A stretch of DNA of 64,000 nucleotides, taken from positions 30,253 through 94,252 of the forward strand of contig CAZGAW010000002.1 in NCBI GenBank assembly GCA_964523645.1. Direction: 5' to 3'. The notes below the pieces were generated by a model, which worked only from the letters and a program-made list of their open reading frames with translations, was not told the origin of the DNA and made no database searches. The translations under genes and the position numbers were made by a program. This document shows, piece by piece, positions 241-59,724 of this stretch (position 1 is its first letter; every line of letters begins with the position of its first letter). This DNA comes from an uncultured bacterium (GTDB lineage Bacteria > Poribacteria > WGA-4E > WGA-3G).

Positions 241-272
241 TCACCTGAACGAACCGCAAGGTATCATAAAAA
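241..272 (+). promoter_or_regulatory. conserved leader motif TCACCTGAACGAACCGCAAGG-N12 directly before ATG
   Basis: Near-identical to 17677-17707; related copies at 16531-16569, 37098-23, 59691-724 and 33402-35(-). Confidence 0.7.
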
Positions 273-869
273 ATGGCACGGCAGCTCAGAATGGTACGCA
301 CTAATTTAGAAAATTTACCGGAATTAGAACTTCCGCCAGGCTACGGCATGCGAACCTATCGCGAAGGTGATGAGGCACACTGGGCACGTATTATCAGCGA
401 CTCATTCGGTGGTAGGGAACGCACCGCGCAAGACACGAGGAATGAGATTACCAGCAGAGATGTATTTCTGCCTGATGGATTCTACTTCGCAACACATCAG
501 GATATTCCTGTTGGAACTGCCTGTGCATGGCGGCAATCTGTAGATGAAAAGGATGTCGGATATGTACACATGGTAGGTGTTGTTGCTGAGCACACCGGAC
601 ACAAACTTGGCAAATGGGTGTCCCTCGCTGTTCTTACCTACTTCCGCGACAACGGATTCAAATGCTCAATGCTGGATACCGATGATTTCCGTGTTCCTGC
701 TGTCAAAACTTACCTGAATTTAGGATTTATACCCGTTTACGTTGAAGAGGGTCAATCAAAGCGGTGGCGGGATATTTTTGAGAAGTTGGGGCTACCCGCT
801 ATGTCCGAAGAAATTGCGAACGTTAGAAAAATACTCCCTAAAGAACTATGGGCGAAAGTCTCAAGTTAA
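273..869 (+). CDS. GNAT-family N-acetyltransferase (paralog 1)
   Basis: 198-aa ORF; C-terminal half VGYVHMVGVVAEHTGHKLGKWV...YLNLGFIPV looks like a GNAT acetyl-CoA-binding core; tandem paralog follows. Confidence 0.65.
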   Translation: MARQLRMVRTNLENLPELELPPGYGMRTYREGDEAHWARIISDSFGGRERTAQDTRNEITSRDVFLPDGFYFATHQDIPVGTACAWRQSVDEKDVGYVHMVGVVAEHTGHKLGKWVSLAVLTYFRDNGFKCSMLDTDDFRVPAVKTYLNLGFIPVYVEEGQSKRWRDIFEKLGLPAMSEEIANVRKILPKELWAKVSS

Positions 870-876
870 GAAACGA

Positions 877-1410
877 ATGGAAGATCAACTCAAAATGGCG
901 CGCCACAGTTTGGAAAATCTGCCGACACTCCAATGTCCTGACGGGTATCATATCCGAACCTATCGGCAAGGAGATGAAATATACTGGGCGCGAATAATGG
1001 ATAGAACCTTTGTAGACAACGGAAGAACTGCCGAAGACACCTACGCTAATGTTATTAACCAACCCAATTTTGATCCAGACGGCTTCTGTTTCGCTATCCA
1101 CAATGATGTCCCTATCGGCACGGCGTGTGCTTGGAATAAATGTCTTCGCGGCAAACCTATTGGTTATATTGACATGCTCGCTGTGCTTCCAGAGCACACA
1201 GGACATAAACTCGGCAAATGGTTAACAGTGTTCCTCCTCCACTATTTCAAAGCACAACGTGTGGTGTATGTCATGTTAGACACAGACGATTTTCGACTCC
1301 CCGCAATCAAAAATTATCTCAACCTCGGGTTTGTTCCCGTTTATGCGGGTGAAAGTCACCTGCGACGTTGGCGAAGTATCTTTGAAAAGTTAGGACTTTT
1401 CAAAAAATGA
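877..1410 (+). CDS. GNAT-family N-acetyltransferase (paralog 2)
   Basis: MEDQLKMARHSLENLP aligns with MARQLRMVRTNLENLP of the upstream gene; same EHTGHKLGKW and YLNLGF motifs; start trimmed from ORF-track 742 (overlaps upstream gene) to ATG 877. Confidence 0.65.
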   Translation: MEDQLKMARHSLENLPTLQCPDGYHIRTYRQGDEIYWARIMDRTFVDNGRTAEDTYANVINQPNFDPDGFCFAIHNDVPIGTACAWNKCLRGKPIGYIDMLAVLPEHTGHKLGKWLTVFLLHYFKAQRVVYVMLDTDDFRLPAIKNYLNLGFVPVYAGESHLRRWRSIFEKLGLFKK

Positions 1411-3128
1411 GAGTGCTTCTCGCCGTGAGAAACTGTTTTCGTTTATCGAATAACTTCGTTATATCCGCAATTCTCATCGGCGGCTTCAGTTTCCGACTCA
1501 TCGGCATAACCGTTGGCTTGCCTGATGCTCCCGACCCACGTGAAGTGCTAATCGCACAAGATGTGCTAAATCTCATCCACTTCACAGCACCCCCTGAAAT
1601 CTACAATTGGCCCGGAACAGCATGGTTTTACGTCATTGCTGCGGTGGGCAAATTGCTATCCCTCGTAGGTCTGCCTCTCACGGAAACTCGCGTAATTTTA
1701 TTGGCACGCTGTATCAATACGCTGTTGTCTACAGCGACCCTCTGGTTCACCTATCGCATCGGGGTTCACGGCTACAATAGGCGTGTCGGTCAACTCGCAG
1801 CCGGATTGCTCGCTGTTGCGATGCTACATGCCACCAACGAATCACGTTTTGCACTTGTGGACATTCCCGCAACCTTCTGTGTGACACTGTTTCTTTGGCT
1901 TGTGGCGCGTACGCGTTCTTCTTCAGTTTCTCCTACCTTCCAAACTGCGATATGGCTCGGTGTCATTGCGGGAATCGGTTTCGCCGTCAAATTTACAACC
2001 GTCTTTGCCGGTTTTTCTGTGTTGGTTTTCATTAGAAGTGAGGGTTTTTATAAAAAATTAGCAACAATTATAGGTATTTCTGCATTAACCTTTTCGTTCC
2101 TCTGTCCTTATTGGTTCATTGATCTGGTTTCACCCGAATGGAATCTCTTCTTTGAGGATTTCTGGTATGAAGCAACCCATTATCACCGCGGGCATTTCGG
2201 TCTCATCACTACGGCAGAATCTGGATTATTCCATCGGTTTATCTATTTGTGGACGCTCCTTAAGTGGGGGATGGGCTTGCCACTCGCACTCCTTGTTAGC
2301 TTGGGGGTCTTGTGTGCGCTCGCATCGCTTAAAGCGGTCAGCCGTCAGCAAAAAGGGTTCGTTAAACGGAAACCTCTTGACCGAAAGCCGATAGTTTCCG
2401 ATAATCAACAATTAGAAATACTCCTGCTCGCTTTTGTTGTGCCCTATCTACTCTTTATCGGGGTACACAAGGTTAAGTTTGTGCGTCATCTATTGATACT
2501 CTATCCAGCATTCACGCTGCTTGCCGCTGCCGCACTCACACGTATGCCAAACATTGTGGAGGCACTTCTACAGTCAAGACATTTCACTAAAAAGGTGCCA
2601 CCGAGAGGACTGAGTACATTTCCGGAATGGTTTGGTATAATTTTGGGGAGTGTTGTAGTGCTTTACTCGTTAGTTTACACGCTTGCCTTTGCTTCTATCC
2701 TATTCTCGCAGCCGACGAAGATTGCAGCATCCGATTGGGTAACCGCGCACATTCCTCAGGAAGAATCTATTGCTGTTGCGCCAGAGATCCTATTCAACTG
2801 GCTTCTCCCTGAATTAGACTTCGTAGGAACAGATGAAAAGGTGAAATGGGTGCTTATCCTTGTGCCGGACTATGAAGTGTTCAGAAAATACCAAGAATCT
2901 CCGCAACGGTATCAAGATGAGGATTGGTACCCTCTCAGCGAGATTGAGTTCGAGGAAACGCTCACATTTTACACGCGAGTTTTAAGGGAAGGAAGTCCGT
3001 ATGAATTGCAAAAGACCTTCCGCCGCATACCGAAGTTCTTAGGTATCCAGATCTCCGATGACGGCGCGCCGTTTCCGATGCGAGCCCTTGCACATCCGGA
3101 ACTCCGCATCTACCGGTACCTCAATTGA
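1407..3128 (+). CDS. polytopic membrane protein, GT-C/GT39 (ArnT/PMT)-like glycosyltransferase candidate
   Basis: 573 aa, many hydrophobic helices, ATGA start/stop overlap with the upstream GNAT gene; family assignment by overall layout only. Confidence 0.45.
   Translation: MRVLLAVRNCFRLSNNFVISAILIGGFSFRLIGITVGLPDAPDPREVLIAQDVLNLIHFTAPPEIYNWPGTAWFYVIAAVGKLLSLVGLPLTETRVILLARCINTLLSTATLWFTYRIGVHGYNRRVGQLAAGLLAVAMLHATNESRFALVDIPATFCVTLFLWLVARTRSSSVSPTFQTAIWLGVIAGIGFAVKFTTVFAGFSVLVFIRSEGFYKKLATIIGISALTFSFLCPYWFIDLVSPEWNLFFEDFWYEATHYHRGHFGLITTAESGLFHRFIYLWTLLKWGMGLPLALLVSLGVLCALASLKAVSRQQKGFVKRKPLDRKPIVSDNQQLEILLLAFVVPYLLFIGVHKVKFVRHLLILYPAFTLLAAAALTRMPNIVEALLQSRHFTKKVPPRGLSTFPEWFGIILGSVVVLYSLVYTLAFASILFSQPTKIAASDWVTAHIPQEESIAVAPEILFNWLLPELDFVGTDEKVKWVLILVPDYEVFRKYQESPQRYQDEDWYPLSEIEFEETLTFYTRVLREGSPYELQKTFRRIPKFLGIQISDDGAPFPMRALAHPELRIYRYLN
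2334..2414. repeat. heptad-armed palindromic element inside CDS, in frame (81 bp)
   Basis: GCGGTCAGCCGTCAGCAAAAAGGG-loop-GAAACCTCTT-GACCGAAAGCCGATAG...; encodes KAVSRQQKGFVKRKPLDRKPIVSDNQQ in a loop of the membrane protein. Confidence 0.65.
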
Positions 3129-3172
3129 GGAATGCAGTAAAGTGTACAAGATATAGGATATCGCGTAGCTAT

Positions 3173-3823: not shown

Positions 3824-3910
3824 GTCTATTTTTGTCCTCTGCCGCCTTTATACCTCTTCGTTGAGATGGCGTATCTTGCAAAAAAGTTTTAAATACTCCT
3901 ATAATAAGCC

Positions 3911-8968: not shown

Positions 8969-8970
8969 GG

Positions 8971-10285: not shown

Positions 10286-10334
10286 AACTGAAAACTGAAA
10301 ACTGAAAACTGAAAACTATCACAACTGACAACCA
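10286..10334. repeat. heptad tandem repeat, right-arm type (AACTGAA x4 then ACAACTGACAACCA)
   Basis: Perfect 7-nt periodicity: CTGAAAA CTGAAAA CTGAAAA CTGAAAA CTATCAC AACTGACAACCA. Confidence 0.8.
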
Positions 10335-12651: not shown

Positions 12652-13091
12652 AGTGTGATACACAAGCTATAGCGTTGAGAGGCTCTTATGTTATCAGCAT
12701 TACTTTTCTCGGTTCCGCTCTACCTGGCGGAAACACCCAAGCAAAAACACCTACAATGAAAATCGCCCGTTATGGAGCGTTTAGAACCCTTTTACTGCCC
12801 GCATCGGCGCACAACCTACACACTCAATTGACACTTATGGTGCGGTTTCCCAACCACACCGGGCATCGGTGAAAATTACCCGATTAAATTCTTAATCTTC
12901 ATCTGGCATGAAGAAGTCTTTATCTGTAAAGATACCTTCTTGCTCCAGCGGAGCAATATGTCTATAGAAAAGACGGGGAACCTTCTTGCAAGCCGAAGAA
13001 AGTGCTATGTGTCAAGTCAAACAATGCGGCATTAGAAAATGATGAACAGATGTGTATCAAAACCTTTACACAGCCTATAACATCCAAAATG

Positions 13092-14105: not shown

Positions 14106-14243
14106 CTATCAGTTGTCAGTCGTCAGTTGTCAGTTAAGAGGTTTCTTTGTTACGGCTTATTACACCTTGGCGTACTCCAAGCAAAAATAAATTGTTACCG
14201 AAAGTCTTTTAACTGATAACCGATAACTGATAACTGATAACTA
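14106..14243. repeat. heptad-armed palindromic element (complete, intergenic)
   Basis: Left CTATCAGTTGTCAGTCGTCAGTTGTCAGTTAAGAGGTTTC, right GAAAGTCTTTTAACTGATAACCGATAACTGATAACTGATAACTA; arms are imperfect reverse complements; ends 8 nt before ATG 14252. Confidence 0.85.
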
Positions 14244-14251
14244 ATACAAAT

Positions 14252-16147: not shown

Positions 16148-16181
16148 GGAAAGCAAAAGTCTGAACTATGATTTGGAGATT

Positions 16182-16416
16182 TATAGGATTAGGACTTACG
16201 CAGCCTGCTCATTTGAGCATCTGACTTTATGGTTTGTGTCTCTTTGTAGCACAAACTTTCCAGTTTGTGTCTCTGTGTAGCACAAACCTTATAGTTTTTG
16301 GCTCTTTGTAGCACAAACTTTCCAGTTTGTGTCAGAAGAACGTGTGTTTTTGCGAGAGTTCCCATCTCACAGGACGGGCTACCGAAACTACAATTGCGTA
16401 AGTCCTGAGGATTATA
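16182..16416. mobile_element. MITE-like element bounded by ~21-bp inverted repeats (TATAGGATTAGGACTTACGCA / TGCGTAAGTCCTGAGGATTATA)
   Basis: Terminal inverted repeats seen directly; the interior carries the 31-bp tandem hairpin array; no ORF. Confidence 0.55.
16232..16334 (+). repeat. 3.3 tandem copies of a 31-bp unit, each containing hairpin GTTTGTG-N11-CACAAAC
   Basis: Copies at 16232-62, 16263-93, 16294-324 and a partial copy at 16325-34; units are contiguous with no spacers. Confidence 0.85.
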
Positions 16417-16494
16417 GGTTTTCAGGATAATCCTAAGCGCATAGCCCATAATGAAATTATGCCTTAAATGGCATAATTTGTCTTTGCTTTACAT

Positions 16495-17565
16495 TTGGAG
16501 GGCGGATATACGGAAAGGGATGTCAATCCACAAACCGAACTGACCGATCCGCAAGGTAAAATTAAAAACTTTCAAGAACGCTTGAGATCTGATGAACCAA
16601 TTTTATACGATGGCGGGTTCGGTTCGCAGTTGTTCGCACGGGATATAGAACTCGCGAACAGCGCACTCGCCAATAATTTGCATCCCACGGCTGTTGTTGA
16701 CATTCATTCGGATTATATCAAGGCAGGTGCTGAGGCGATCGGGACAAATACGTTCGTCGCATCCCCGCTTCATCTTGAGATGGCGGGACAAAATGTATCC
16801 GATGCGAAACGGCTTATACGACTCGCCGTTCAACACGCGAAAACGGCTGTCGCACAGAGTGGAAAAGATGTTTATATTGCCGGTTCCGTGGGACCCTCCC
16901 CCGGCGCGATTGAAGCCGACAGCGGCGATACCACTTTCGGAATCCCAAATGCGGATGCCAGAGAAGCGCATAAATTAGTTATCCATACCCTCGCGGAAGA
17001 AGGCGCGGATTTCCTCTGCCTTGAGACGATGTTCTCTGCAAAAGAAGCAGCGATGGCTGTAGATGTCGCGCGTGAGACAGGAATCCCTATTGCAGTGAAC
17101 CTGACTTACAAATGGACGAAAGAACGGCGGACCGGCAATATCGTCTATCGGACAGACTGGGGAAATTCTCCCGCAGATTTACTCGATATTCTCATAAACA
17201 ACGAATTTTCGGAAGGAGACTCACTATTGGAGGCTGTTAGTATCCTTGGCGTGAACTGCGGGGCTGAATCCAGACGTGATGAACATACCGGAATGCCTTA
17301 CGCGATTGCTGGAACCCAGCAGGTCCACGCAGCACTCACTGAAGTAGGCGTTGATGGTAAGCGGATGATGGCATATCCTAACGCTGGCATGCCGAAACTT
17401 GATGAAAACCATAATACCGTCTATACGCAGACCCCAACAGAGATGGCAAGCCACGTTCCCGCCCTCCTTGAGGCAGGTGCTTATTTAATAGGTGGCTGTT
17501 GCGGGACAACCCCGACACATATTAAAGCCTTCCGTGAGGCAATCACATCGTATCGTTCGACATAG
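16495..17565 (+). CDS. homocysteine S-methyltransferase-domain protein (stand-alone MetH Hcy-binding module type)
   Basis: GGFGSQL, GTNTF, GSVGP, LGVNCG and GGCCGTTPTHI (Zn-Cys context) as in the PF02574-type domain. The start is uncertain: the leader motif lies inside the ORF-track N-terminus, and TTG 16582 is an alternative. Confidence 0.7.
   Translation: MEGGYTERDVNPQTELTDPQGKIKNFQERLRSDEPILYDGGFGSQLFARDIELANSALANNLHPTAVVDIHSDYIKAGAEAIGTNTFVASPLHLEMAGQNVSDAKRLIRLAVQHAKTAVAQSGKDVYIAGSVGPSPGAIEADSGDTTFGIPNADAREAHKLVIHTLAEEGADFLCLETMFSAKEAAMAVDVARETGIPIAVNLTYKWTKERRTGNIVYRTDWGNSPADLLDILINNEFSEGDSLLEAVSILGVNCGAESRRDEHTGMPYAIAGTQQVHAALTEVGVDGKRMMAYPNAGMPKLDENHNTVYTQTPTEMASHVPALLEAGAYLIGGCCGTTPTHIKAFREAITSYRST
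16506..16569 (+). promoter_or_regulatory. extended leader motif copy (ATATACGGAAAG...CCGAACTGACCGATCCGCAAGGTAAAATTAAAAAC)
   Basis: Aligns with 17647-17707 over about 60 nt, but here no ATG follows. Confidence 0.55.
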
Positions 17566-17646
17566 ACATAATTGCTGGAGTGAGGAGAACGATGCGTAAG
17601 TCCTACGTTGAAAGGGCGCGTAGCTTGGAATGTAATGGAAATCGAG

Positions 17647-17707
17647 TATACGGAACGAAACTTTCAAGCACCAACCCACCTGAACGAACCGCAAGGAAAA
17701 GTAAAAA
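17647..17707 (+). promoter_or_regulatory. extended leader motif (TATACGGAACG...CACCTGAACGAACCGCAAGGAAAAGTAAAAA) directly before ATG
   Basis: The last 31 nt are nearly identical to 241-272. Confidence 0.7.
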
Positions 17708-18262
17708 ATGGAGACAGTAACACTTACCTATAAAAGACCTCCTGATCGAGTTAACCACTTTCAGCAGCAATTACTTTATCTCGACGAGGATGTTATTGTT
17801 ACATCTCAACGGGTGAAACCGTCTTCACCTATCGTTCAGAACGGTCAGACGGTTTTGGCGGATAACTTCGCCGCTGTCTGGTTCGTATTCACAGGGCTTT
17901 GGTACGATGTCGGCAAAGTTTATAATCTGAAAAACGAGTGGACTGGCTATTACTGTGATATTATGAAGCCGGTCAAACGAAACATAGATGTCAACCGGAA
18001 ACTCAACCGTTTTGAAATAACCGACCTGTTCCTGGATCTTTGGATAAATCCAGATGGCACCTATGAAATTCAGGATGAGGACGAATTTGAAGATGCAGTT
18101 CAGGATGGTGCCATTGATGCCGCGTTGGGAAAAAAAGCATTGGAGGTCCTAAAGGCATTAATTGTTGAAGTTGAGTCGGGAGACGTGGAACATCGTTTGC
18201 AAGAGGTAATGCGTAGCGCAGAATTTCCAGATTTGCAGGATTATATAGAAAGGTTACCTTAG
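17708..18262 (+). CDS. DUF402-domain protein (FomD/nucleoside-diphosphatase-like fold)
   Basis: 184 aa; W..YYCDI..P pattern typical of DUF402. Confidence 0.5.
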   Translation: METVTLTYKRPPDRVNHFQQQLLYLDEDVIVTSQRVKPSSPIVQNGQTVLADNFAAVWFVFTGLWYDVGKVYNLKNEWTGYYCDIMKPVKRNIDVNRKLNRFEITDLFLDLWINPDGTYEIQDEDEFEDAVQDGAIDAALGKKALEVLKALIVEVESGDVEHRLQEVMRSAEFPDLQDYIERLP

Positions 18263-19628: not shown

Positions 19629-19768
19629 TATAGTAAATCCCACAATTAACTTATACACCAACGGGAAGGCGAGGTTACCAGGGGAAACACCCCAGCAAAA
19701 ACACCTCGCCAGCGACGGAAGGGGGCTTGTGTTTATAGCGTATGCACTTATTTTTAGGATTTACTATA
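19629..19768. mobile_element. MITE-like element with perfect 12-bp TIRs TATAGTAAATCC / GGATTTACTATA (copy 1)
   Basis: The interior aligns, in reverse orientation, with the interior of 23915-24032, including hairpin GGCGAGGT...ACCTCGCC and CAGCGACGGA. Confidence 0.75.
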
Positions 19769-20713: not shown

Positions 20714-20720
20714 AATAGGA

Positions 20721-20815
20721 GTCAGCCATCAGCAGTCAGCAGTCAGCAAGAGGGTGTAATTACATCAGAAAACCTCTTAACTAACAGCCGATTGCTGATA
20801 CCCTGATAGCCACTG
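20721..20815. repeat. heptad-armed palindromic element (complete, intergenic)
   Basis: GTCAGCCATCAGCAGTCAGCAGTCAGCAAGAGGGTG-loop-AAAACCTCTTAACTAACAGCCGATTGCTGATACCCTGATAGCCACTG; ends 2 nt before ATG 20818. Confidence 0.8.
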
Positions 20816-28467: not shown

Positions 28468-28628
28468 AGTTATCAGGTGTCAGTCGTCAGTCATCAGTTT
28501 TTAGAGTCGTCAGTTAAGAGGGTTTTTTAACAATCTTATCTTCGTTGGGCATCAGTCTCTATTTAGAACGATGAGTGTTACCAAACCTCTCTTGTGACTG
28601 ATAACTGATAACCGATAACTGACAACTA
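28468..28628. repeat. heptad-armed palindromic element (complete, intergenic)
   Basis: AGTTATCAGGTGTCAGTCGTCAGTCATCAG...GTCGTCAGTTAAGAGGGTTTTTT - 60 nt - AAACCTCTCTTGTGACTGATAACTGATAACCGATAACTGACAACTA. The terminal CTA is the TAG stop of the upstream (minus) gene; the other end is 3 nt from start 28464. Confidence 0.85.
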
Positions 28629-30146
28629 ATAGATCGTAATTTCAAGTTGATTGAGGGTATGTAAAACACCTTCTGCGAATTCCATAAGATTGTCCGACTC
28701 CAGAATGCTACCGCCGAGTTGAATGTGGTTCGCATCAGCAATGAGCTGATCCAACGTTGGATCCATCTGTACCCATTTACCGACATAGACTTCGGGCCAG
28801 AAATGGTAATAGAAGGCATCCTTTGCAAATACAACACCCGAGCAAATCCGTGCTGGGATTCCGGCAGCACGTGCCAGCGCGATAAATAGTACTGTATGTT
28901 CCGTGCAATCGCCAGAGAGTGACTGTAGTACTGTTAATGACGAAGCAAAACCTCCACTCATTTTTTTATCGTTAATCGATGTGTAAACCCAACGACATAA
29001 TTTTTCCGCGGCACGCCACGAATTAACTTCGTCCTCCAAAATTTCCGCAGCCTTTGCCTGAATATCGGGATGATTGGCTTGAATATATGCACTTGCAGCA
29101 AGGAATTCACCTTCTGGACTCTGGATGGGTAGAGCGAGGCAATCTTCCGCTACAATGAGTGGAACCTGAATGGAAAGTTTACCAGCGTGTGCAGTGTTTA
29201 CCTCGAGTTTCTGCCGACGGGTAGACATAACAACTTCGGCGATGTTCCCTGTTGGGAGTTTCACTTCTGCCTCAAGGTGTTTTGCTGTTGGAATCGGATG
29301 TTTACCTGAAGGCAGGATACGAGTTTTTAAGACAACATCAACTTCTTCGATACCACCAAGCGCAGTCTCCTTATCCGTCTTCGTAGTTACCATGGAAAGC
29401 CCCATTAAAGGCACTTCTGTCCGATAGTTTACACCCTCTCGGTCAATCCACAGTTTCGCCGTAATGCCATTCATTATGTCAATTGTCTGTCTTAAAACAT
29501 AAACCTGCTTTTCCTCCGACTGATACCTTAAGGTTTCCTCTCCTAAAATCTCGATTTCCGTTTGCGCAGGTTTCAGCAGGTCAAAAATGAACATGTGAAA
29601 GGTACGTTTATCGCCTACTTTAAGTGCCTTCTGGGTTAGCAATGATGCTACACCTGTGTATTCAGAAATGGTATCTGGTGGTACCGAGATTTCTGATTCG
29701 GTGATTTCACCGTTGAGTGCTGTTTTAACGTGGGCAATTCCATCTACAATCTGTCCCTCAATCTGTTTTAATCCAGATTCATTAGAGGTCGAAAGAAAGT
29801 AGCGAGGCGTTAAGTCGGAACCTATATATTCAACGCGAGTAATTTCAACGGTTATGTCGGTCCCAAGTGCCTTAAAATTCATCACGATATCGGTTTTGTT
29901 CCGAGCGACCTGTTCCCCTTGATACTCGGTTTCTTCAGTAGATGTGTGCATGTAACCGATCTTGGTGTTCATCAAGGTGAGATTATACCAGTGTTCTTGC
30001 GGATGATTTAGCATGTTTTGGAATGTGCTTTGTTCTTCGTCTGCAGCGTCCGCTGACGTAGCGGCTTGCAGGCAGAGCATCGCTGCTATGCAGGCAAACG
30101 CAAAGCGGCGCAGATGATAAAACTTCAAAAATTTTGATAATATCAT
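28626..30146 (-). CDS. transglutaminase-like (Cys-His-Asp) domain protein, secreted
   Basis: GDCTEHTVLFIALARAAGIPAR, YYHFWPEVY and MDPT give the C/H/D triad context of the transglutaminase-core superfamily; signal peptide present. Confidence 0.7.
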   Translation of the reverse strand: MILSKFLKFYHLRRFAFACIAAMLCLQAATSADAADEEQSTFQNMLNHPQEHWYNLTLMNTKIGYMHTSTEETEYQGEQVARNKTDIVMNFKALGTDITVEITRVEYIGSDLTPRYFLSTSNESGLKQIEGQIVDGIAHVKTALNGEITESEISVPPDTISEYTGVASLLTQKALKVGDKRTFHMFIFDLLKPAQTEIEILGEETLRYQSEEKQVYVLRQTIDIMNGITAKLWIDREGVNYRTEVPLMGLSMVTTKTDKETALGGIEEVDVVLKTRILPSGKHPIPTAKHLEAEVKLPTGNIAEVVMSTRRQKLEVNTAHAGKLSIQVPLIVAEDCLALPIQSPEGEFLAASAYIQANHPDIQAKAAEILEDEVNSWRAAEKLCRWVYTSINDKKMSGGFASSLTVLQSLSGDCTEHTVLFIALARAAGIPARICSGVVFAKDAFYYHFWPEVYVGKWVQMDPTLDQLIADANHIQLGGSILESDNLMEFAEGVLHTLNQLEITIY

Positions 30147-32086: not shown

Positions 32087-33484
32087 CTACTGCTGCAAAC
32101 GTCTGGCTAAATCCTCTCGAGTGACAGGTTTGTCAAAAGACATAAGGTAGATGTGGAAAGTATCGCTCCTGTCGGAAACGAACGCGATGTGTCGTCCATC
32201 AGGTGAAAAAGCAGGTTGAATAGATCTGCCGATGTCGCTGGTTATACGCCGTTCATTTTTACCGTCTGCATCAATGAGATAAATCTCCCAATCACCGTCT
32301 CTTGCTGAAACGTACGCAATCGTTTGTCCGTCAGGCGACACCGTAGGGTTGTAACAATCGTAGCGATTTGGATTGAAATGTTTCTCGTTTTGTGCGTCAA
32401 TGTCTATCGTATAGAGTTGGTTGACCTCATTTCGAGAGGAGACAAATACAATGCGCTTTCCGTCTGGGAAGAATGCGGGACTTCCGTCATCAGTTTCGTT
32501 AAAGGTGATACGTTTCGGTTCAACGTCTTCTGGCGTGAGCTGCGCCAGATCAAGTCCTGCCAAGTTGAGGAGATATAATTCCAGGTTTCCATCTACATTA
32601 GATTCGTAAACAACCTGATTGCCAGCGGGGGATGCACGCGGTACGCGGGCACCAAAACTGACTGGCAAAACGGCTCGCGTCGTTTTGCTGTGGATATGTG
32701 TCACGTTGAATCCTGCGTAAATTGGGGTGGAGCCACTGCTCTGGATGACGACTTTAACTTCACGGGATGACTTCGGTTCACTGCTGTAAAACAGGTAGTT
32801 TGGGGTCGTAAGGAATGCTGGCGAACTGTCGTTAAAATCTGTTGTGAAAGTGACACGACGCTGGATACGCCCGTTAAGATCCATTAAATAGATTTCGCCG
32901 TTGTCGAGTCGAAACGAGGCAAAGGCAATTTGCGTGCCATCTGGTGAGAAAGTCGGTGAATAGTTATCCGAGTCGCCACGGGTCAGCTGCTTTGTGTGGT
33001 AACTGTCTCCCACGAGTTCGATAATTTTGCGCAAGACTTCAGGATCCAGCGTGCTGCGCTGAACGAGTCGGAGTACGCGAAACGCGGAATTTCTGTCTCC
33101 GAATCTCAGATAAGTACGCGCCAATTCGAGTCGTGCTGCGACCCGTTCTTCCGGTTGTGCGGCATAAAGTTGTGAAGCCTTTTGCAACTCCATAACTGCA
33201 TCGTTGTAACGCCCTACATCATTATAGGCTTGGCCGAGTAACATCCGGGCCTTCGGCTCTTCAGGTGCCATTTCAATGAAAGCCTCGAGTTCTTCAACTG
33301 CGGCTTGTGGCGTTCCAGCGTTCAACAGTTCTTCACTCTTTTTCAGAACTGCCATATTATCTTCACATCCAATTATTAGGACAACGAGAAGGATGCTACA
33401 TATTTTAATGATTCCTTGCGGTTTGGTCAGGTAGGTTGATATTTTCACGTTCTTTCCCGTAGAGTCACCTGCGTGTTTTTGCAA
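32087..33484 (-). CDS. TPR + TolB-like PD40 beta-propeller lipoprotein
   Basis: FSPDGTQIAFAS, VSPDGQTIAYVS and FSPDGRHIAFVS PD40 repeats; lipobox LIIGC. The likely true start is GTG 33448 (MKISTYLTKPQGIIKICSILLVVLIIGC). Confidence 0.75.
   Translation of the reverse strand: MQKHAGDSTGKNVKISTYLTKPQGIIKICSILLVVLIIGCEDNMAVLKKSEELLNAGTPQAAVEELEAFIEMAPEEPKARMLLGQAYNDVGRYNDAVMELQKASQLYAAQPEERVAARLELARTYLRFGDRNSAFRVLRLVQRSTLDPEVLRKIIELVGDSYHTKQLTRGDSDNYSPTFSPDGTQIAFASFRLDNGEIYLMDLNGRIQRRVTFTTDFNDSSPAFLTTPNYLFYSSEPKSSREVKVVIQSSGSTPIYAGFNVTHIHSKTTRAVLPVSFGARVPRASPAGNQVVYESNVDGNLELYLLNLAGLDLAQLTPEDVEPKRITFNETDDGSPAFFPDGKRIVFVSSRNEVNQLYTIDIDAQNEKHFNPNRYDCYNPTVSPDGQTIAYVSARDGDWEIYLIDADGKNERRITSDIGRSIQPAFSPDGRHIAFVSDRSDTFHIYLMSFDKPVTREDLARRLQQ
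33402..33435 (-). promoter_or_regulatory. leader motif copy (CCTACCTGACCAAACCGCAAGGAATCATTAAAAT) lying inside the predicted signal-peptide coding region
   Basis: Same CCGCAAGG-N-TTAAAA design; the ATG at the expected position is out of frame and followed by TAG. Confidence 0.5.
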
Positions 33485-33647
33485 ACGCTGAAATCCAACG
33501 CGAAGAAAGTATTTCTGCGTATTGTTGCAGGCTCCGTTTTGGTATCACTCAAAGTACACTCCTGTCATCAAGAGTCGAGAATCGGAGTGTTTTTGATAGG
33601 GGTATTTGCTTGGGTGTTTCCTCGTATTTCTTCCCTCTTACAGAAAA

Positions 33648-36868: not shown

Positions 36869-37097
36869 GTTTTGTCGCTTTTCCTTGAAAAAATCGTTGA
36901 ATTCCTTTAAAATTCTTGAAATGTGGTTAGAGCAATGTGCCTATTTCTTTTTGGGTATAGCGGAATTCGAGAAAGGCACGTGAACCCCGAAGTCCACTTA
37001 AAGTTGTCCAAAGATTAGTCTTCATCGCATAACGCGCGTAACTCGTAACGAAATGGAGAGCGGATTCGAGAAAGGCGCGTGAAGCACAAACTCACGT

Positions 37098-37123
37098 CAT
37101 TTAACCGCAAGGAATAATTAAAA
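37098..37123 (+). promoter_or_regulatory. leader motif copy (TCATTTAACCGCAAGGAATAATTAAAA) directly before ATG
   Basis: CCGCAAGG-N12-ATG spacing as at 273 and 17708. A 25-bp direct repeat GCGGA(A)TTCGAGAAAGGC(A/G)CGTGAA occurs at 36960 and 37060 upstream. Confidence 0.6.
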
Positions 37124-37915
37124 ATGGTTGAACTTACACGGGAAGACATTGAATTTTTCAAAAATGAAGGGTATTTGGTGAAGCGAAACGTCCTGGACCC
37201 GGCATTGATGGAACGGGCACGGGCAAGACTCTGGGATGGTGCACCTGAAGGGCGTAAACGTGAGGACCCTGACACTTGGATAGGCCCCTTCACCCCTGAA
37301 GAGGAAAACATTGACAAAAACAACAACCGGCGCGGGTTCCGGTGGAACTTCCGTGAACCGGGTGGCGAAGATTGGATGGTTCAACTGCTCGCGACCGATC
37401 CAAACGTCTGGCGGATGGCTGAACAGTTTTTAGGTGAGGGAAATTTGGTGCAACCCGACCGTGTGCGTGGCATCTATTGCACGCTACCTTACGGCGATGT
37501 CCCGAAGAAATCGATCGGGTGTCACGTGGATGCGCATCCGTTTCATCTCGGTGCTGTCGGGTATATTGATGATGTGCCACCGGAAGGTGGCGGATTTACC
37601 GTTTGGCCAGGAAGCCATAAAACCTTCTATTACGATTACAATTCCCAATACAAGAACGAGCCGACACCGCAATACGAGATTGATCGTGAACGTCTCAGCA
37701 GAGAGTCAGGTGTTGAATGCTACGGGAACGCAGGGGATGTTGTCTTCTGGCACCATCGCATCGGTCATGCCGCCGGACATAACTATTCGCGACAGATCCG
37801 GCAGGCAGTTCTGTACGACTTCCGAAAGACGGAATTGGAGCAAACGCAGGAAGAGCCACCGAACGAGGATATGTGGCGAGATTGGCCCGGCATCAAGGCG
37901 TTGGAAAATTTTTAA
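37124..37915 (+). CDS. phytanoyl-CoA dioxygenase (PhyH)-family Fe(II)/2-oxoglutarate oxygenase
   Basis: LTREDIEFFKNEGYLV start, HVDAHP (HxD), distal HHRIGHAAGHN. Confidence 0.7.
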   Translation: MVELTREDIEFFKNEGYLVKRNVLDPALMERARARLWDGAPEGRKREDPDTWIGPFTPEEENIDKNNNRRGFRWNFREPGGEDWMVQLLATDPNVWRMAEQFLGEGNLVQPDRVRGIYCTLPYGDVPKKSIGCHVDAHPFHLGAVGYIDDVPPEGGGFTVWPGSHKTFYYDYNSQYKNEPTPQYEIDRERLSRESGVECYGNAGDVVFWHHRIGHAAGHNYSRQIRQAVLYDFRKTELEQTQEEPPNEDMWRDWPGIKALENF

Positions 37916-38078
37916 ATATACCTTGCGGGAGAACAACGCGGATTAGAACTTTGACGCACCTTGTTCTCAAGTCGCCTGCGCCGGTGTTGGAGGAAAAGGT
38001 CTGGCCCCAGCGTGTATTCAAAAACTTGAGTTCTTCCGAACTGTCTTTGGGGTTGATTGGTTGGGTCATAAGCGGAGC

Positions 38079-38315: not shown

Positions 38316-39311
38316 TCAAGATTTAGGCAATCTGTTCCCCGTATTTTGTCTTAAAAGTTCATCTCTCACCTCTGCAATACGCTGTTTTAGCTCTTTTTCT
38401 ATGCTCATTCTTAACCATAGAAAATCATCTGAAGGAATTGCGTTCTTGAGTATTTTAGAACTGGCTTCTTCTGGGGGGAGTTTGAGATAATCAGGATCCT
38501 GACAACAATAGATAGCAATGGCATTTATACCATCTTTCACATGCCCCAGTGAATTCTCCTTAAAAAATCCAAGTTGACATATCCAGCGGACTGCACTACC
38601 ATAACTCATGTTCATGAGATGGCCAGATACACCGTAGTCATAAAACTCACATATCTCCCCCATAAAATTGTTCACAGTGTCCATCAAAGTTCTTAAATCA
38701 GAAACCATAAAAGAGTTAGAGTCGCCATATTCATATTTGTCATCAAGATGGGCGACCTTAGAATCGACATAATTCCAGAGATTTTTCATTGACTCTGCCG
38801 CCTTTATATGAGACTCAAGACGTTCTAAAAAGAGTGTAAACTCTTCGGTGTCTGCTTTGATGCTCGTATGCAAGTTACATATTTGGGTTTTTATCCTTTT
38901 CATAGAAATGGCTTTTCCAACCCCTGAAGATTTATCTGTTGTTAATTTCCGTAAGTTCACGAGTAAGGAATCGAAAGTTGATAATGTTAGATGTATCCAC
39001 AGAGGGGGATTCAGATCACGGAGGTCTTTATGATACTTAATTAAATCTTCTTCGGCGGCATGATAAGTTAAGTCAGACGGTTTTACATCCGCAAAGGCTA
39101 AGTATAGCCCGCGCTGATAATGCGCTATGAGAAATAGTTCCTTAAATTTCTTATACGATGAACTAAAGTCGCTTGCAAATTTCTGAATCTGCTTATCAAT
39201 GCTGTCAACCTTTTGGGGAGTTGCCTTTTGGCGAACGTCTTCATATTTAGCAATTATGTTCGCTTCAAGTTGTTCAAAATCTTCTGATTCCATATTTATG
39301 TCAAGTCTCAT
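38316..39311 (-). CDS. hypothetical all-helical protein, 331 aa, no recognisable family
   Basis: Long ORF in an A+T-rich segment, SD GGAAGG upstream, own terminator; no catalytic motif recognised by eye. Confidence 0.55.
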   Translation of the reverse strand: MRLDINMESEDFEQLEANIIAKYEDVRQKATPQKVDSIDKQIQKFASDFSSSYKKFKELFLIAHYQRGLYLAFADVKPSDLTYHAAEEDLIKYHKDLRDLNPPLWIHLTLSTFDSLLVNLRKLTTDKSSGVGKAISMKRIKTQICNLHTSIKADTEEFTLFLERLESHIKAAESMKNLWNYVDSKVAHLDDKYEYGDSNSFMVSDLRTLMDTVNNFMGEICEFYDYGVSGHLMNMSYGSAVRWICQLGFFKENSLGHVKDGINAIAIYCCQDPDYLKLPPEEASSKILKNAIPSDDFLWLRMSIEKELKQRIAEVRDELLRQNTGNRLPKS

Positions 39312-45216: not shown

Positions 45217-46110
45217 TCATCGTTCCCTGACAAAGAGCGAACCTTCCTGCGTCGCGCATATAAGTTTTTCGCCATCTGCTGAAAATGTTAATTCTCGGAT
45301 GGGACTCTCTTGGACTGGGAACATGGATACTGGCTTACCATCACTTACATCCCATAACTGAATGTAGTTATCTCTCCCGCCGCTTACAAGTAGCTCTCCA
45401 TCGGTAGAGAATGCCAAGGCGTTGACTGAATCAGTATGCCCCCTGAATATCGTGAGTAAATGCTTGCTTTCCAAATTCCACAATTTCACAAGTGTGTCCG
45501 AACCGCCGCTCACCAGCGTCTCACTTTCAGGTGAAAATGCCAAAGCCAAAACAAGTCCATCATGTGCCGAGAAAGTAGACAGCAGCCCGCCCGTTTCAAC
45601 TTCCCACAAACGAATCTTACCGTCCGCACTTCCACTGGCGAGTGTTGTTCCATCCGGTGAAAATGCCAAACTTCTAATGCGCCCTGGGGCTTCCGTAGAA
45701 GAAGCGAGCAACCGTTCCGTGCGCGGATCCCATCCGGGGAGTGGAACGCCATCGGGTGAAGATGATGCTAACGCGTTCACCAGATTAGAATCCCCGGCAA
45801 GTGTTAGCACTTCGCGCGCCGTGGCGGTATCCCAGAGTCGGAGCGTGTTATCTTCACTTCCACTGGCAAGCAGCGAATTGTCTGGCGCGAATGCCAATGC
45901 CCGCATGTGTTCGGTATAACCTGAGAGCATCGCAAATTGCGCGCCACTCTCTGTGTCGTATATCCAGATACGTCCATCACCCCCCGCGGCGAGCCGTGTG
46001 CCATCTGGCGAGAAAGTGATAGCCATTACTTGCTTTTTATCGAACCTCGTTTTGAGTCCCGGAGGTAACTCAGATGGGATACTGTTCTGAAACAGTTCTA
46101 TTTTTTCCAT
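45217..46110 (-). CDS. WD40-repeat protein
   Basis: Repeats ending LASGSEDNTLRLWD, LASGSADGKIRLWE, LVSGGSDTLVKLWN and LVSGGRDNYIQLWD. Confidence 0.85.
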   Translation of the reverse strand: MEKIELFQNSIPSELPPGLKTRFDKKQVMAITFSPDGTRLAAGGDGRIWIYDTESGAQFAMLSGYTEHMRALAFAPDNSLLASGSEDNTLRLWDTATAREVLTLAGDSNLVNALASSSPDGVPLPGWDPRTERLLASSTEAPGRIRSLAFSPDGTTLASGSADGKIRLWEVETGGLLSTFSAHDGLVLALAFSPESETLVSGGSDTLVKLWNLESKHLLTIFRGHTDSVNALAFSTDGELLVSGGRDNYIQLWDVSDGKPVSMFPVQESPIRELTFSADGEKLICATQEGSLFVRER

Positions 46111-46223
46111 TTTTTAACTATTGCTCCTGGGCTAAAGAAATCCCAAGCAAAAACCCCTCCATTTCGTTTCGGGCAGATTTCTGGTTCAGTCTACTGAATT
46201 GGAGCCGTTTGCGGTTTCCAGTA

Positions 46224-51460: not shown

Positions 51461-51505
51461 GCACATATTGATGTCCCGTAGAAATTGACGTTTGGAGTAC
51501 AAATT

Positions 51506-52128: not shown

Positions 52129-52146
52129 GCATGTGATCAACTTCTA

Positions 52147-54486: not shown

Positions 54487-54502
54487 AGCACGACTCCTTT
54501 TT

Positions 54503-55651: not shown

Positions 55652-55680
55652 ATCAACTTTTGATTTGCCAGCGTTTGATT

Positions 55681-57621: not shown

Positions 57622-57855
57622 TCGATTGATCTCCTTATTATATTGAACTAAGGTTATTATACTGAATTACCTTATTTTTTTCAAATTTTATCCCTTATGG
57701 ACTGGCACGAATTCAGGATGAAATAGATTTTAAGAAAAATACCTGTTCTGTTGTCGGTTCAATCGACGTAAGTTGCGATTCAGGCTGTGTTATCGGGGAT
57801 CAACTTTTTTAAAATTACCTTGCCTAAAACTGTTCCTTCATGCTATCATGTAAAC

Positions 57856-58755
57856 ATGGAGAGCACGAACGGCGTTACAAAAAAAAACATCCTAAATATC
57901 ACAAAGCCGAGAGAATCTCGAACAGCACTCGTAGAAAGCAATACACCAGATGCCTTTCAGAAACTCTGTCGAGAGTATTGGACGTGGCACTTCGACGAAT
58001 CACTGTCGGATGCCGCCCGGTTACTATTAAGCACAGAACTGGGTTGGGAGGCGATGCCCCAACTCACAACACCGCCCGTTGGTGAAGTCATCTCCCCACT
58101 CGGTTACGCGCTTGCACATGAAGATAAAGATATCCGCGATGCTGCACTACAGGTATTGGATGCAAACGTTCATATTCCTGCAGGCGTTGCTCATATCGGT
58201 GAAGAATGCGAACCGCTGGAGATGGATGAATTTAAGCTTGGCGTTTATCCTGTAACCAATGCCCAGTACCAGCGATTCGTTCAGGATACTGGGCACGCAC
58301 CACCTCAGGATTGGACAGAGGGTATCTATCCAGCAAACAGAGGCGATCATCCTGTTGTTTGGGTTACGTGCGAAGATGGAGAGGCGTATGCGCGTTATAT
58401 CGGTGGAAGGCTACCAACATTTCCAGAATGGCAATACGCTGCACGCGGTGTTGATGACAGACTTTTTCCGTGGGGATATGAAGTTGATAGACCGCGATGT
58501 AATACTGCGGAACTCGGTGCGGGGGCGACAACTCCGGTCGTTAGTTTCAGAGATGGCGTAAGTCCGTTCGGCTGCTACGACATGGTCGGCAACGTCTGGG
58601 AATGGACAGACACACCTTATGACGATGCAGGGAATTTCCGTGTGGCATGTGGAGGCGCATGGTATTACAACCACGACTATAGCACCTGCACCAGTTACGA
58701 TTTTTTTAGCAATGGGTATGCAGAGTTTGTAATTGGATTCCGTGTCGCGTGGTGA
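57856..58755 (+). CDS. formylglycine-generating enzyme (FGE-sulfatase/SUMF1) family protein
   Basis: YPVTNAQYQRFV, HPVVWVTCEDGEAYARYIGGRLPTFPEWQYAARG and DMVGNVWEWT motifs; start trimmed to ATG 57856. Confidence 0.8.
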   Translation: MESTNGVTKKNILNITKPRESRTALVESNTPDAFQKLCREYWTWHFDESLSDAARLLLSTELGWEAMPQLTTPPVGEVISPLGYALAHEDKDIRDAALQVLDANVHIPAGVAHIGEECEPLEMDEFKLGVYPVTNAQYQRFVQDTGHAPPQDWTEGIYPANRGDHPVVWVTCEDGEAYARYIGGRLPTFPEWQYAARGVDDRLFPWGYEVDRPRCNTAELGAGATTPVVSFRDGVSPFGCYDMVGNVWEWTDTPYDDAGNFRVACGGAWYYNHDYSTCTSYDFFSNGYAEFVIGFRVAW

Positions 58756-58799
58756 TATTATACAATCACACTCGAATTTGCGCCGATGGGGAAAGAGCA

Positions 58800-59345
58800 A
58801 TGAGAAATAAAAAAAACGATCCAGAACGTGCCTTAGCACCTGAAAAATCCTCGGTATCCTCAGATGGGTTGCAAAAGGAACTCATCCAGCGGGGGCGCGT
58901 CGATATTCACACACATCAGACCGCTGCGAAGCACTTGAAACAAGGAGCGGATGCCCTAAACGTTCGAGACTACGCGAAAGCAATTGAAGAATTTCAGCAG
59001 GTAATTCAACATAATCGTGAATCGGCTGAGGCACACTTTCATCTCGGTTTGGCACATTTTATGTTGGAAGACTATGAAAGGGCGATAGACGCATACAAAA
59101 TGGCGATAGCCTGCGAACCGAGCGAAGCGACGGCATACCTCAATCTCGCAGCAACCTATCGCATGCTCAAACGTTACGACGAGGCTGTTGATGTTTACAC
59201 GCGTGCCATCCGTTTTATACCGAGTCACCCTGAGTTGCATTCTGAACTTGGGGCAGTCTATACGTTTCAAGGTAAGCGACGTGAAGCAGTCGGTGCTTAT
59301 AAAACAGCGTTGCGCCTTAAATTGCAACTTACCTCGGACAGATAA
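58800..59345 (+). CDS. TPR-repeat protein
   Basis: AHFHLGLAHFMLEDYERAIDAYKMAI, AYLNLAATYRMLKRYDEAV...; start trimmed to ATG 58800. Confidence 0.65.
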   Translation: MRNKKNDPERALAPEKSSVSSDGLQKELIQRGRVDIHTHQTAAKHLKQGADALNVRDYAKAIEEFQQVIQHNRESAEAHFHLGLAHFMLEDYERAIDAYKMAIACEPSEATAYLNLAATYRMLKRYDEAVDVYTRAIRFIPSHPELHSELGAVYTFQGKRREAVGAYKTALRLKLQLTSDR

Positions 59346-59400
59346 CGGACTGCGTAGGGAATCTTGAGCTGTGGAGTGTTGACCACACAGGAGGAATGTC

Positions 59401-59679
59401 ATGTCAGACCAAGAATTTCGCGAACGAATTTTGTCGGCGTTGAATGACTTAAAGGATCAGATCAAAACCACTGAAAATCGCACAGAAAAGCGTTTTGATT
59501 CCATAGAAAACCGATTGGATTCTATTGATCAGCGTGTAGGATCGCTTGAGAGAGACGTTGGATGGATTAAAGGAAAATTGGAAGGTAGACAGGAGACAGG
59601 CACACGGTGGGTAAGTTTCATTGCAGTGGGAACAGCGATTGTCTCTGCGGTTATTGCCTTAATCGCTCTTGTGACGTGA
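59401..59679 (+). CDS. small coiled-coil protein with a C-terminal TM anchor
   Basis: 92 aa; repeated RFDSIENRLDSIDQRVGSLERDV heptads, then VSFIAVGTAIVSAVIALIALV. Confidence 0.5.
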   Translation: MSDQEFRERILSALNDLKDQIKTTENRTEKRFDSIENRLDSIDQRVGSLERDVGWIKGKLEGRQETGTRWVSFIAVGTAIVSAVIALIALVT

Positions 59680-59690
59680 ACGTTCAAATT

Positions 59691-59724
59691 TACGCCTAAA
59701 CGAACCGCAAGGAACATTAAAAAA
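59691..59724 (+). promoter_or_regulatory. leader motif copy (TACGCCTAAACGAACCGCAAGGAACATTAAAAAA) directly before ATG of the ECF sigma gene
   Basis: Same AACGAACCGCAAGG-N12/13-ATG design. Confidence 0.65.

Follow-up and report, generated by a model that had tools for sequence, protein, structure and literature searches.

A polar interspersed repeat of Poribacteria that ends at start codons and may serve as a portable leader for translation initiation

Copies of the repeat in a 64-kb stretch of Poribacteria DNA

The 64-kb stretch of DNA analysed here (contig CAZGAW010000002.1 of an uncultured bacterium), called the window below, has a G+C content of 46.5%, and the proteins that it encodes have their closest relatives in Poribacteria. 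Several genes of the window are preceded by copies of one sequence motif, composed of the octamer CCGCAAGG and an A/T-rich tail. Nine octamers are present where 1.9 are expected, and seven of these (254+, 16549+, 17689+, 33421-, 37105+, 37928- and 59705+) are accompanied by the tail and by up to about 70 nt of upstream similarity. The octamers at 28081+ and 63012- look like chance matches, since they lie inside open reading frames (ORFs), share no similarity in their flanks and are missed by the profile and BLAST screens. The longer 19-mer ACCTGAACGAACCGCAAGG, with at most three mismatches, gives five matches (243-261+, 16538-16556+, 17678-17696+, 33432-33414- and 59694-59712+) against 0.01 expected. 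In four copies the tail is flush with an ATG, at 273 (GNAT), 17708 (DUF402), 37124 (PhyH) and 59725 (ECF sigma factor), and the distance from AAGG to ATG in the window copies is 11-13 nt. An initial annotation of this DNA had reported a recurrent motif in front of unrelated genes, and the seven copies with similar flanks, four of them flush with an ATG, bear it out. The two alignments on which it had drawn also hold: positions 241-275 and 17676-17710, described as nearly identical, agree at 30 of 35 positions, and 16506-16569 can be aligned with 17647-17707 over about 60 nt.

What is the motif part of? It is the 3' terminal module of a modular, polar interspersed intergenic repeat of about 90-110 nt. 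On the sense strand of the downstream gene, the modules follow each other in a fixed order: a (G)TAG or TAA head; P1, a 21-nt hairpin with the triloop G(A/T)A or AAC (for example GCCCGTAAC-GAA-GTGGAGGGC and GCCTGCAAC-AAC-GGCGCAGGC); GG and a subtype-specific segment (ATATACGGAAAGG, ATTTAAGAAAGG or CTCGAACAC); ACGTnAA; a CA-rich stretch ending in ...CCTGACCGAA, ...GTTTCT or ...CTTAT; the invariant octamer; and a tail with the consensus W-A-W-A-W-T-W-AAAA, which lies between the octamer and the start codon. The copies found in the window are as follows.

224-272, + strand: 5'-truncated copy (profile positions 43-91) with CA-rich spacer, CCGCAAGG at 254-261 and tail TATCATAAAAA; flush with the GNAT ATG at 273
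16441-16569, + strand: copy with an insertion; P1 5' half at about 16441-16461, nested terminator-like hairpin in the P1 loop at about 16462-16494, CCGCAAGG at 16549-16556
17618-17707, + strand: full-length type I copy; CCGCAAGG at 17689-17696, flush with the DUF402 ATG at 17708
33403-33531, - strand: copy with a P1-loop insertion; P1 5' arm at about 33531-33512, remainder at 33472-33403, CCGCAAGG at 33421-33414
37036-37123, + strand: full-length type II copy; CCGCAAGG at 37105-37112, flush with the PhyH ATG at 37124
37992-37909, - strand: near-full-length orphan copy; no ORF downstream, tail overlapping the PhyH 3' end in antisense
46185-46111, - strand: variant copy; P1 loop and 3' half GAAACGAAATGGAGGGG, nested mini-repeat GGAGGGGTTTTTGCTTGGG, AGGAG-type tail CCCAGGAGCAATAGTTAAAAA
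About 59673-59724, + strand: 5'-truncated copy (profile positions 43-91); CCGCAAGG at 59705-59712, flush with the ECF sigma factor ATG at 59725

The profile match of the copy at 16441-16569 covers 16496-16567, and its tail overlaps the start of the homocysteine S-methyltransferase (HcyMT) gene. The HcyMT and DUF402 genes are 142 nt apart, and the full-length type I copy, with a partly eroded P1 (GCTT...AATC), lies in this gap. At the end of the PhyH gene, the 24-nt antisense fragment of the initial annotation (37906-37929) turns out to be part of the near-full-length orphan. The variant copy, which that annotation had not listed, directly adjoins the ATG of a gene with WD40 repeats (45217-46110). 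The density of the element in the window is thus 7-8 copies per 64 kb. An ORF at 50-304 (84 aa, TTG start) reads through the first leader and is plausibly spurious.

Distribution of the element

Is the repeat confined to Poribacteria? A pattern scan with CCGCAAGGNANNNTNAAAA, using one genome per species, gave at least 120 loci. Among the 120 matches listed, 56 are Poribacteria loci (54 from Poribacteria metagenome-assembled genomes or chromosomes and two whose sequence is nearly identical), and 8 kb of such a locus often contains several matches. A match in these Poribacteria loci invariably forms the end of a longer unit that is itself conserved, which is not the case in the 64 other loci listed. 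A profile hidden Markov model (HMM) was built from 36 aligned copies and used to search about 600 kb of Poribacteria DNA, where it found about 116 unique copies with E-values down to 1e-22 and recovered the same seven window copies. On 461 kb of non-Poribacteria loci the same profile found nothing better than E = 1e-3. The repeat family therefore appears, from these sequence searches, to be specific to Poribacteria. A scan of metagenomes with ACCGAACCGCAAGG returned mainly unrelated soil contigs, together with five usable Poribacteria loci. Related loci that were compared with the window carry L-numbers below (L126, L131, L252 and so on).

The element has no counterpart among described RNA families that could be found by these searches. 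At the gathering score, neither the window nor 18 Poribacteria loci with many copies (140 kb) matched a family of Rfam 15, and a search of a 1.6-kb stretch with three copies at a permissive E-value gave chance-level matches alone (E above 3). No description of such a Poribacteria repeat, intergenic motif or RNA motif was met in the searchable literature, and the main text of Weinberg 2017 does not mention Poribacteria.

Folding of the element

The hairpin P1 is the part of the element for which base pairing is best supported. In the alignment 83% of P1 cells are paired, compared with 67% in shuffles, and none of 500 shuffles reaches 83%. Compensatory changes are seen at all eight pairs. The covariation score, 0.52, is above the maximum of 0.16 obtained with slid partners. 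The pair that closes the triloop alternates between C-G and T-A, U-G wobbles appear on the sense strand, and (G)TA precedes the hairpin in most copies. The stem itself consists of merely 4-6 Watson-Crick pairs plus mismatches, and P1 makes up about one fifth of the element.

Beyond P1, RNAalifold predicts no helix from the aligned copies except a trivial 2-bp CC/GG pairing around GCAA. The bases that flank this CC[GCAA]GG mini-hairpin are not complementary (A/A in 56 copies, A/T in 19, T/T in 16 and T/A in 9). On both strands, 72 full copies have on average the same folding energy as shuffled sequences (mean z = -0.3). Two further pairings sought by eye, a long-range GCGG/CCGC pairing and a pairing of the P1 3' arm with CCnCCTG, are inconsistent among copies and are not predicted by RNAalifold. 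The tail and the start codon are predicted to be unpaired, with a mean pairing probability of 0.07-0.3 over positions -11 to +1. The lack of a conserved fold besides P1, together with the unpaired tail, makes a riboswitch-like RNA unlikely.

These results bear on two suggestions of the initial annotation. Its view that the motif is not a metabolite riboswitch is upheld by the absence of Rfam matches, the absence of a conserved fold past P1 and the unrelated downstream genes; the broader candidate of a riboswitch or structured cis-regulatory leader was rejected here on the missing Rfam match, the missing multi-helix fold and the incoherence of the downstream genes. The test for covariation that it had called for gave a divided result: P1 covaries, with compensatory changes at every pair, and no other helix does. 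Its other suggestion, a shared cis-regulatory RNA, finds no support, because only the 5' hairpin covaries, the folding energy does not differ from that of shuffles and no alternative pairing is conserved.

A related proposal is that the element is a shared cis-regulatory leader read by a trans-acting factor, an RNA-binding protein or a small RNA that recognises CCGCAAGG and/or P1, so that the genes behind it form a post-transcriptional regulon. The absolute conservation of the 8-mer, which a Shine-Dalgarno model does not need, is consistent with this idea, as are the covarying sense-strand hairpin with its U-G wobbles, the retention of the element at the same genes in several species and, on reading the alignment, the recurrence of (A)NGGA-like motifs (ACGGA, AAGGA) in type I copies. 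However, type II copies are without ACGGA, no structure is conserved past P1 and the bases on either side of CC[GCAA]GG are not associated as Watson-Crick pairs. The genes behind the element are unrelated and not the same set in close relatives, and no candidate factor was identified. A regulon of this kind is the least probable of the explanations considered here.

Partial copies of the element fall into discrete classes by their starting point in the profile (about 20, 29, 42 and 52-62), and all of them keep the 3' end. The final 21 nt are tandemly duplicated at several loci. The mini-repeat GGAGGGGTTTTTGCTTGGGTGTTTC, about 25 nt in length, is seen in both orientations and lies alone in intergenic DNA or nested in the P1 loop or the middle of the element. 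Sites were noted in L007, L033 and L049, and in the window at the following positions.

12729-12754: mini-repeat GGAGGGGTTTTTGCTTGGGTGTTTC
19680-19708: mini-repeat
33589-33621: mini-repeat
46142-46160: mini-repeat

Position relative to start codons

The strongest regularity of the element is its position. An ORF of at least 80 codons begins at -3 to +3 from the end of the tail in 61 of the 116 copies (53%), and in 60 of these 61 the start is ATG. Among copies that were not ascertained via the tail pattern, an ORF starts flush with the tail in 23 of 47. The corresponding control values are 3.4% for the opposite end on the opposite strand and 7.4% for random positions. In 17 further copies the start lies 4-30 nt downstream, some of these genes having a GGAG of their own (e.g., L021 and L097), and in 10 copies the next feature is another copy of the element. 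Copies are single or arranged head-to-tail and always have the orientation of the downstream gene; back-to-back pairs are occasionally seen (L131, L119). The upstream neighbour is mostly co-directional, about as expected of any bacterial gene. The genes downstream are functionally unrelated.

The portable behaviour that the initial annotation had ascribed to the leader is supported by these data, in that the element ends at a start codon in about half of its copies, across many Poribacteria genomes and always on the strand of the gene. The same annotation had set against its own idea the prospect that the motif might be the end of a larger repeat with no bias towards start codons. Half of that prospect has come true: the motif does belong to a larger interspersed repeat, and the bias towards start codons is very strong.

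Probable non-canonical start codons and doubtful ORF starts

At two loci of the window the tail does not supply an in-frame ATG. In L129, where the HcyMT gene has no element, the gene begins with ATG AAA AAC TTT. In the five genomes with an element at this gene, an ATT of the tail is in frame exactly at the position of the L129 ATG (window 16561-16563+), before the conserved K(N/I/K)F(Q/R)ERL. The HcyMT gene of L131 contains no ATG, GTG or TTG from the upstream stop to the conserved N-terminus, and the next canonical start would remove conserved residues. At the second locus, a lipoprotein gene on the minus strand, the flush ATG is out of frame (ATG TAG), and an in-frame ATT AAA (ATT at 33409-33407-) precedes a good lipoprotein signal peptide, KICSILLVVLIIGC.

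On this comparison of sequences, the HcyMT (16561) and lipoprotein (33409) genes probably use non-canonical ATT (AUU) start codons. Initiation at AUU would give HcyMT the N-terminus (M)KNFQERL and the lipoprotein the N-terminus (M)KICSILLVVLIIG ahead of the lipidated Cys. The ATG of both genes appears to have been lost via small deletions in the A-rich junction of the element. The copies at these genes had been described as having no usable ATG, but they are not dead remnants, since an in-frame ATT is found at the expected N-terminus of both. The doubt that the initial annotation had cast on the ORF-track starts at 16495 and 33484 is justified by ortholog comparison at the HcyMT and lipoprotein genes. 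Gene callers either extend these ORFs through the element or truncate them. The ATT cases require that the element is transcribed from upstream and that initiation takes place inside the tail.

Gain, loss and exchange at orthologous loci

Have the copies been stable at their genes? The RACo-HcyMT-DUF402-aminotransferase cluster is syntenic in six other genomes. In front of DUF402, a type I element is flush with ATGGA in the window, L126, L129 and L130, and a type II element takes the same position in L127 and L131; L128 has no element, and a restriction-modification pair is inserted there. This insertion (L128 1021-2473), a BglII-type restriction endonuclease with an N6/N4 methyltransferase between HcyMT and DUF402, has removed the element found elsewhere. 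The middle of the type I copies at DUF402 has strongly diverged, with CCGCAAGG unchanged. At HcyMT the element is present in the window, L126, L127, L130 and L131 and missing in L129. The intergenic region upstream of HcyMT has a peculiarity of its own: in the window a 31-nt palindromic unit, GTTTGTGTCTCTTTGTAGCACAAACTTTCCA, is repeated 3.3 times at 16232-16333, and this REP-like array (GTAG beside a 7-bp stem) is part of a stretch of about 313 nt (within 16175-16492) that is absent from the orthologous intergenic region of L126 and L130.

In L131 an element lies between the BatA/VWA and POTRA genes, which in the window and in L130 overlap by ATGA. The copy at PhyH has a 41-nt 5' module (37036-37076) in the window that is missing from the orthologous copy in L254. 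The TPR/PD40 lipoprotein gene (32087-33409-) has an element in the window and none in its 94%-identical ortholog in L252 or in L253; here the element has taken the place of the ancestral intergenic region together with some twelve codons. At the gain and loss junctions host sequence has been replaced or deleted and not duplicated, and the events are imprecise rather than transposase-like. Beside the PhyH ortholog of L254, a stretch of about 6 kb that runs in the window from 37916 to about 43800 and carries a HEPN/AbiU2-like gene (38316-39311, -) is absent. This stretch has the look of a variable island, perhaps with a role in defence, and the orphan copy of the element lies at its edge.

Gain, loss, subtype exchange and 5' truncation among orthologous loci show a turnover of the element on the time scale of species divergence. 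Elements are also kept at the same genes in genomes that share 77-92% protein identity, and this retention, together with an octamer that is invariant amid divergence, points to selection at the level of the host.

The turnover raises the possibility of a selfish mobile or recombinogenic element without host function. Its position at start codons would then be an insertion-site preference, for instance for A-rich runs before ATG, and the conservation of CCGCAAGG and the tail would reflect recognition during mobilisation. The high copy number of 7-8 in 64 kb fits such an origin, and so do the subfamilies, nested insertions and tandem arrays, the orphan copies (such as 37992-37909), the discrete 5'-truncated classes that all retain the 3' end, and the presence or absence among close relatives, with host DNA lost at the flanks. 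P1 is similar to a hairpin of the REP type that follows a GTAG head, and triloops of the GNA kind are known for their stability in single-stranded DNA. However, no terminal inverted repeats and no target-site duplications were found, and a tblastn search of about 600 kb of Poribacteria DNA for a RAYT or other Y1 transposase gave nothing below E = 0.7, a weak test because the IS608 TnpA and Escherichia coli RAYT query sequences were approximate. The gene inside the element-rich cluster of L119 is an oxidoreductase-like ORF and not a Y1 transposase or RAYT. The persistence of the element at the same genes over 77-92% protein identity with an invariant octamer is also difficult to reconcile with a purely selfish existence, and genes that have lost their native upstream signals depend on the element. 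A selfish element without host function is quite unlikely on this evidence, though not the most improbable of the rivals.

Comparison with known repeats and leaders

The element belongs to none of the REP/BIME, ERIC or Correia families. It would work most like transcribed intergenic repeats that influence their neighbours, and its end like a leader of the phage type. To our knowledge, strict polarity with flush fusion to the start codon in about half of the copies has not been described for bacterial interspersed repeats.

The REP/BIME sequences of Enterobacteria and Pseudomonas, the REPINs among them being mobilised by RAYT, share with the element a short length, high copy number, extragenic location, mosaic structure and tandem arrays. 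They also have a GTAG-like head with a hairpin, which P1 resembles in part, and are co-transcribed with flanking genes, as is probable for the element. In contrast to the element, REPs occur mainly downstream of genes or where two genes converge, take either orientation, frequently form inverted doublets and are devoid of translation signals. The polarity of the element is strict, and beyond occasional back-to-back pairs no inverted doublets of the REP kind were seen among its copies. Internal mismatches and a conserved triloop mark its hairpin, and an invariant octamer and an A/T tail adjoin the start codon. The Correia repeats of Neisseria (CREE/NEMIS), about 100-150 nt long and present in hundreds of copies, are likewise intergenic; they are co-transcribed, as is probable for the element, and change the expression of the neighbouring gene through signals at their ends, as the element may do. 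They differ in having 26-bp terminal inverted repeats, a TA target duplication, both orientations, promoter elements and RNase III sites, whereas the element lacks inverted ends and duplication and abuts the start codon. Nor is it a miniature inverted-repeat transposable element: its 5' terminus, (G)TAGCC..., is not an inverted copy of its 3' terminus, ...ATTAAAAA, and the gain and loss junctions show no target-site duplication. ERIC/IRU of Enterobacteria and Yersinia, of about 127 nt, is an intergenic repeat as well; it is transcribed and has orientation-dependent effects on the expression or stability of its neighbours. Unlike the element, it is a long imperfect palindrome, occurs in both orientations and is not found at start codons.

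Integron attC sites, such as the Vibrio cholerae repeats, are similar in being species-specific, about 60-130 nt long and placed between unrelated genes of one orientation, shortly before the start codon of the next gene. However, attC sites have RYYYAAC/GTTRRRY core sites and bottom-strand hairpins, stand in cassette arrays adjacent to an integrase and form part of the 3' end of their cassette. The element was rejected as an attC site: its 5' end is of the CYGYAAC type, its 3' end is mostly ATTAAAA, the ends are not complementary, and its host genes are syntenic core genes on both strands. A DNA-uptake sequence, a CsrA site and an RNase E site, as well as attC, were rejected as primary explanations from the sequence, the grounds being its polarity, the absence of core sites or features not conserved from one subtype to another. 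A parallel to the end of the element is the leader of phage T7 gene 10 (AAGGAG, epsilon enhancer). Both have an AAGG(AG) Shine-Dalgarno sequence and an unstructured A/U-rich spacer that can stand before any coding sequence; AAGG is located 10 nt before AUG in T7 and 11-12 nt before it in the element. The T7 leader differs in that it is a single phage locus and not a repeat family, with no upstream hairpin module and no invariant CCGC.

Separate from the element, 7-nt tandem arrays (ACTGACA, AACTGAA, TAACTGA or AGTCAGC, in 3-5 copies) lie directly upstream of many genes, often with an A-rich stretch and the ATG following at once, and in some cases ahead of the element. They were noted in L127, L129, L055 and L111, and in the window at the following positions.

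14-37: 7-nt tandem array
10286-10317: 7-nt tandem array
14109-14135: 7-nt tandem array
14210-14246: 7-nt tandem array
20720-20748: 7-nt tandem array
28597-28631: 7-nt tandem array
60906-60937: 7-nt tandem array

Initiation of translation or initiation of transcription?

We favour the reading that the element is a portable 5' untranslated region (UTR) and translation-initiation cassette carried by an interspersed repeat, and we consider it about evenly balanced between true and false. In this proposal the element would be transcribed as part of the mRNA, and its last 30 nt or so would act as a portable translation-initiation region. AAGG(A) would be a weak Shine-Dalgarno sequence that pairs with the 3' end of 16S rRNA 11-12 nt before the AUG; the A/U-rich spacer, predicted to be unpaired, would keep the start codon accessible, and P1 may serve as a 5' boundary or stabiliser hairpin. 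New copies would probably arise via recombination or a transposition step. Microhomology between A-runs could then lead to junction slippage, giving rise to the 21-nt tail duplications and to apparent 8-nt deletions that place ATT where ATG had been. A copy would be retained if its tail came to lie suitably spaced from a start codon, and would otherwise decay.

The spacing data are consistent with this proposal. A GGAG-type Shine-Dalgarno sequence is found in 48% of other genes, with spacing peaks at 6-7 and 10 nt. None of the loci analysed includes the 3' end of 16S rRNA, and it is the use of GGAGG by these genes that suggests a canonical anti-Shine-Dalgarno sequence in this organism. In the element, the distance from AAGG to ATG is 12 nt in 33 of 46 copies and 11 nt in 8 of 46, which corresponds to a GGAG spacing of 9-10 nt and lies inside the native distribution. 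Taken together, 41 of 46 copies have AAGG(A) at 11-12 nt from an ATG that is predicted to be unpaired, as in a Shine-Dalgarno initiation region. Two variant tails have AGGAG in place of CAAGG. The portable 5' UTR or translation-initiation cassette that the initial annotation had put forward is therefore partly supported, and the cis-regulatory RNA that it had offered alongside is not.

Several observations weigh against the translation-initiation cassette. Transcription of the element is deduced from sequence. AAGG is a Shine-Dalgarno sequence of only 4-5 nt at the long end of the spacing range, and its distance from the proposed ATT starts, 4 nt, is too short. No start codon is found within 30 nt in 27 of the 116 copies, the window orphan at 37992-37909 included. 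A Shine-Dalgarno sequence with a spacer leaves the invariance of CCGC unexplained. Neither a mobilising enzyme nor terminal inverted repeats or target-site duplications were found. Finally, in 44 copies that were not selected on the tail, A is present at position 2 in 43 and at position 4 in 40, and T at position 6 in all 44, with positions 1, 3 and 5 variable; this pattern, which the cassette likewise leaves unexplained, resembles a -10 hexamer.

The last of these points leads to the main rival explanation. The tail could be the -10 element of a promoter, with RNA polymerase starting at or next to the A of the ATG, so that the mRNAs would be leaderless or nearly so and the repeat would be a portable outward-facing promoter. 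The hexamer that follows AAGG (TAAAAT, AATAAT, TATAAT or AAAATT) lies 5-6 nt upstream of the ATG, and the alternation of A and T at its positions 1, 3 and 5 between the conserved bases matches the information profile of a -10 box. The same hexamer-N5/6-ATG geometry is seen in two textbook promoters of the window, each implying a leaderless mRNA.

36797-36760, - strand: TTGACA-N17-TATAAT-N6-ATG, DUF5916/CBM9 gene
34516-34479, - strand: TTGTAA-N17-TATAAT-N6-ATG, EamA-like gene

A small peak of genes with hexamer-N5/6-ATG is found elsewhere too, with similar cases in L090 and L112. The flush starts are ATG in 60 of 61 cases, as leaderless translation requires, and a consensus promoter scan flagged 240-267, in the first copy of the window, as promoter-like. 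However, the -35 region matches TTGACA at 2-3 of six positions in most copies, which is about chance level, and only 9 of 118 copies reach a total of 9 out of 12. The extended -10 dinucleotide TG is missing, the first position of the hexamer is A in 64% of copies, and the invariant CCGCAAGG at -20 to -13 has no known sigma-70 role. At the HcyMT and lipoprotein genes the ATT, which is the only plausible start, overlaps the hexamer; a transcript begun downstream of the hexamer therefore cannot encode the conserved N-terminus. It is unlikely that the element is a portable promoter, although no other rival comes as close.

It is conceivable, as a more speculative alternative, that the element is a self-propagating 'start-codon cassette' that is copied onto the 5' ends of genes by an RNA- or recombination-based route. 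Such a cassette would provide a common leader whose CCGCAAGG is read by a dedicated factor and in which AUU initiation is permitted, and would be a DNA-encoded analogue of a spliced leader; we regard it as improbable, slightly more so than a selfish element. The octamer and its flank appear identical to the helix-27 tetraloop segment of 16S rRNA (GGGGAGUACGG/CCGCAAGGUUAAAACUCAAAUGA), and from this presumed identity it is conceivable that the octamer mimics a ribosome component. The element as a whole (e.g., 16507-16569) also seems to read like E. coli 16S nt 885-915 (GGGGAGTACGG/CCGCAAGGTTAAAACTCAAATGA), with a middle module between TACGG and CCGCAAGG; this may be coincidence.

Implications

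If the element is a portable translation-initiation leader, a single repeat family would provide the translation start region for a sizeable minority of the genes of an uncultivated phylum that is associated with sponges. The element would then be an unusual bacterial interspersed repeat, both polar and functionally fused to start codons, and a compact, naturally portable leader for expression work. It would also explain systematic gene-start errors in Poribacteria annotations, namely ORFs extended through the element, N-termini cut at the next TTG and missed ATT starts. In addition, the element is a marker for tracing recent rearrangements in these genomes.

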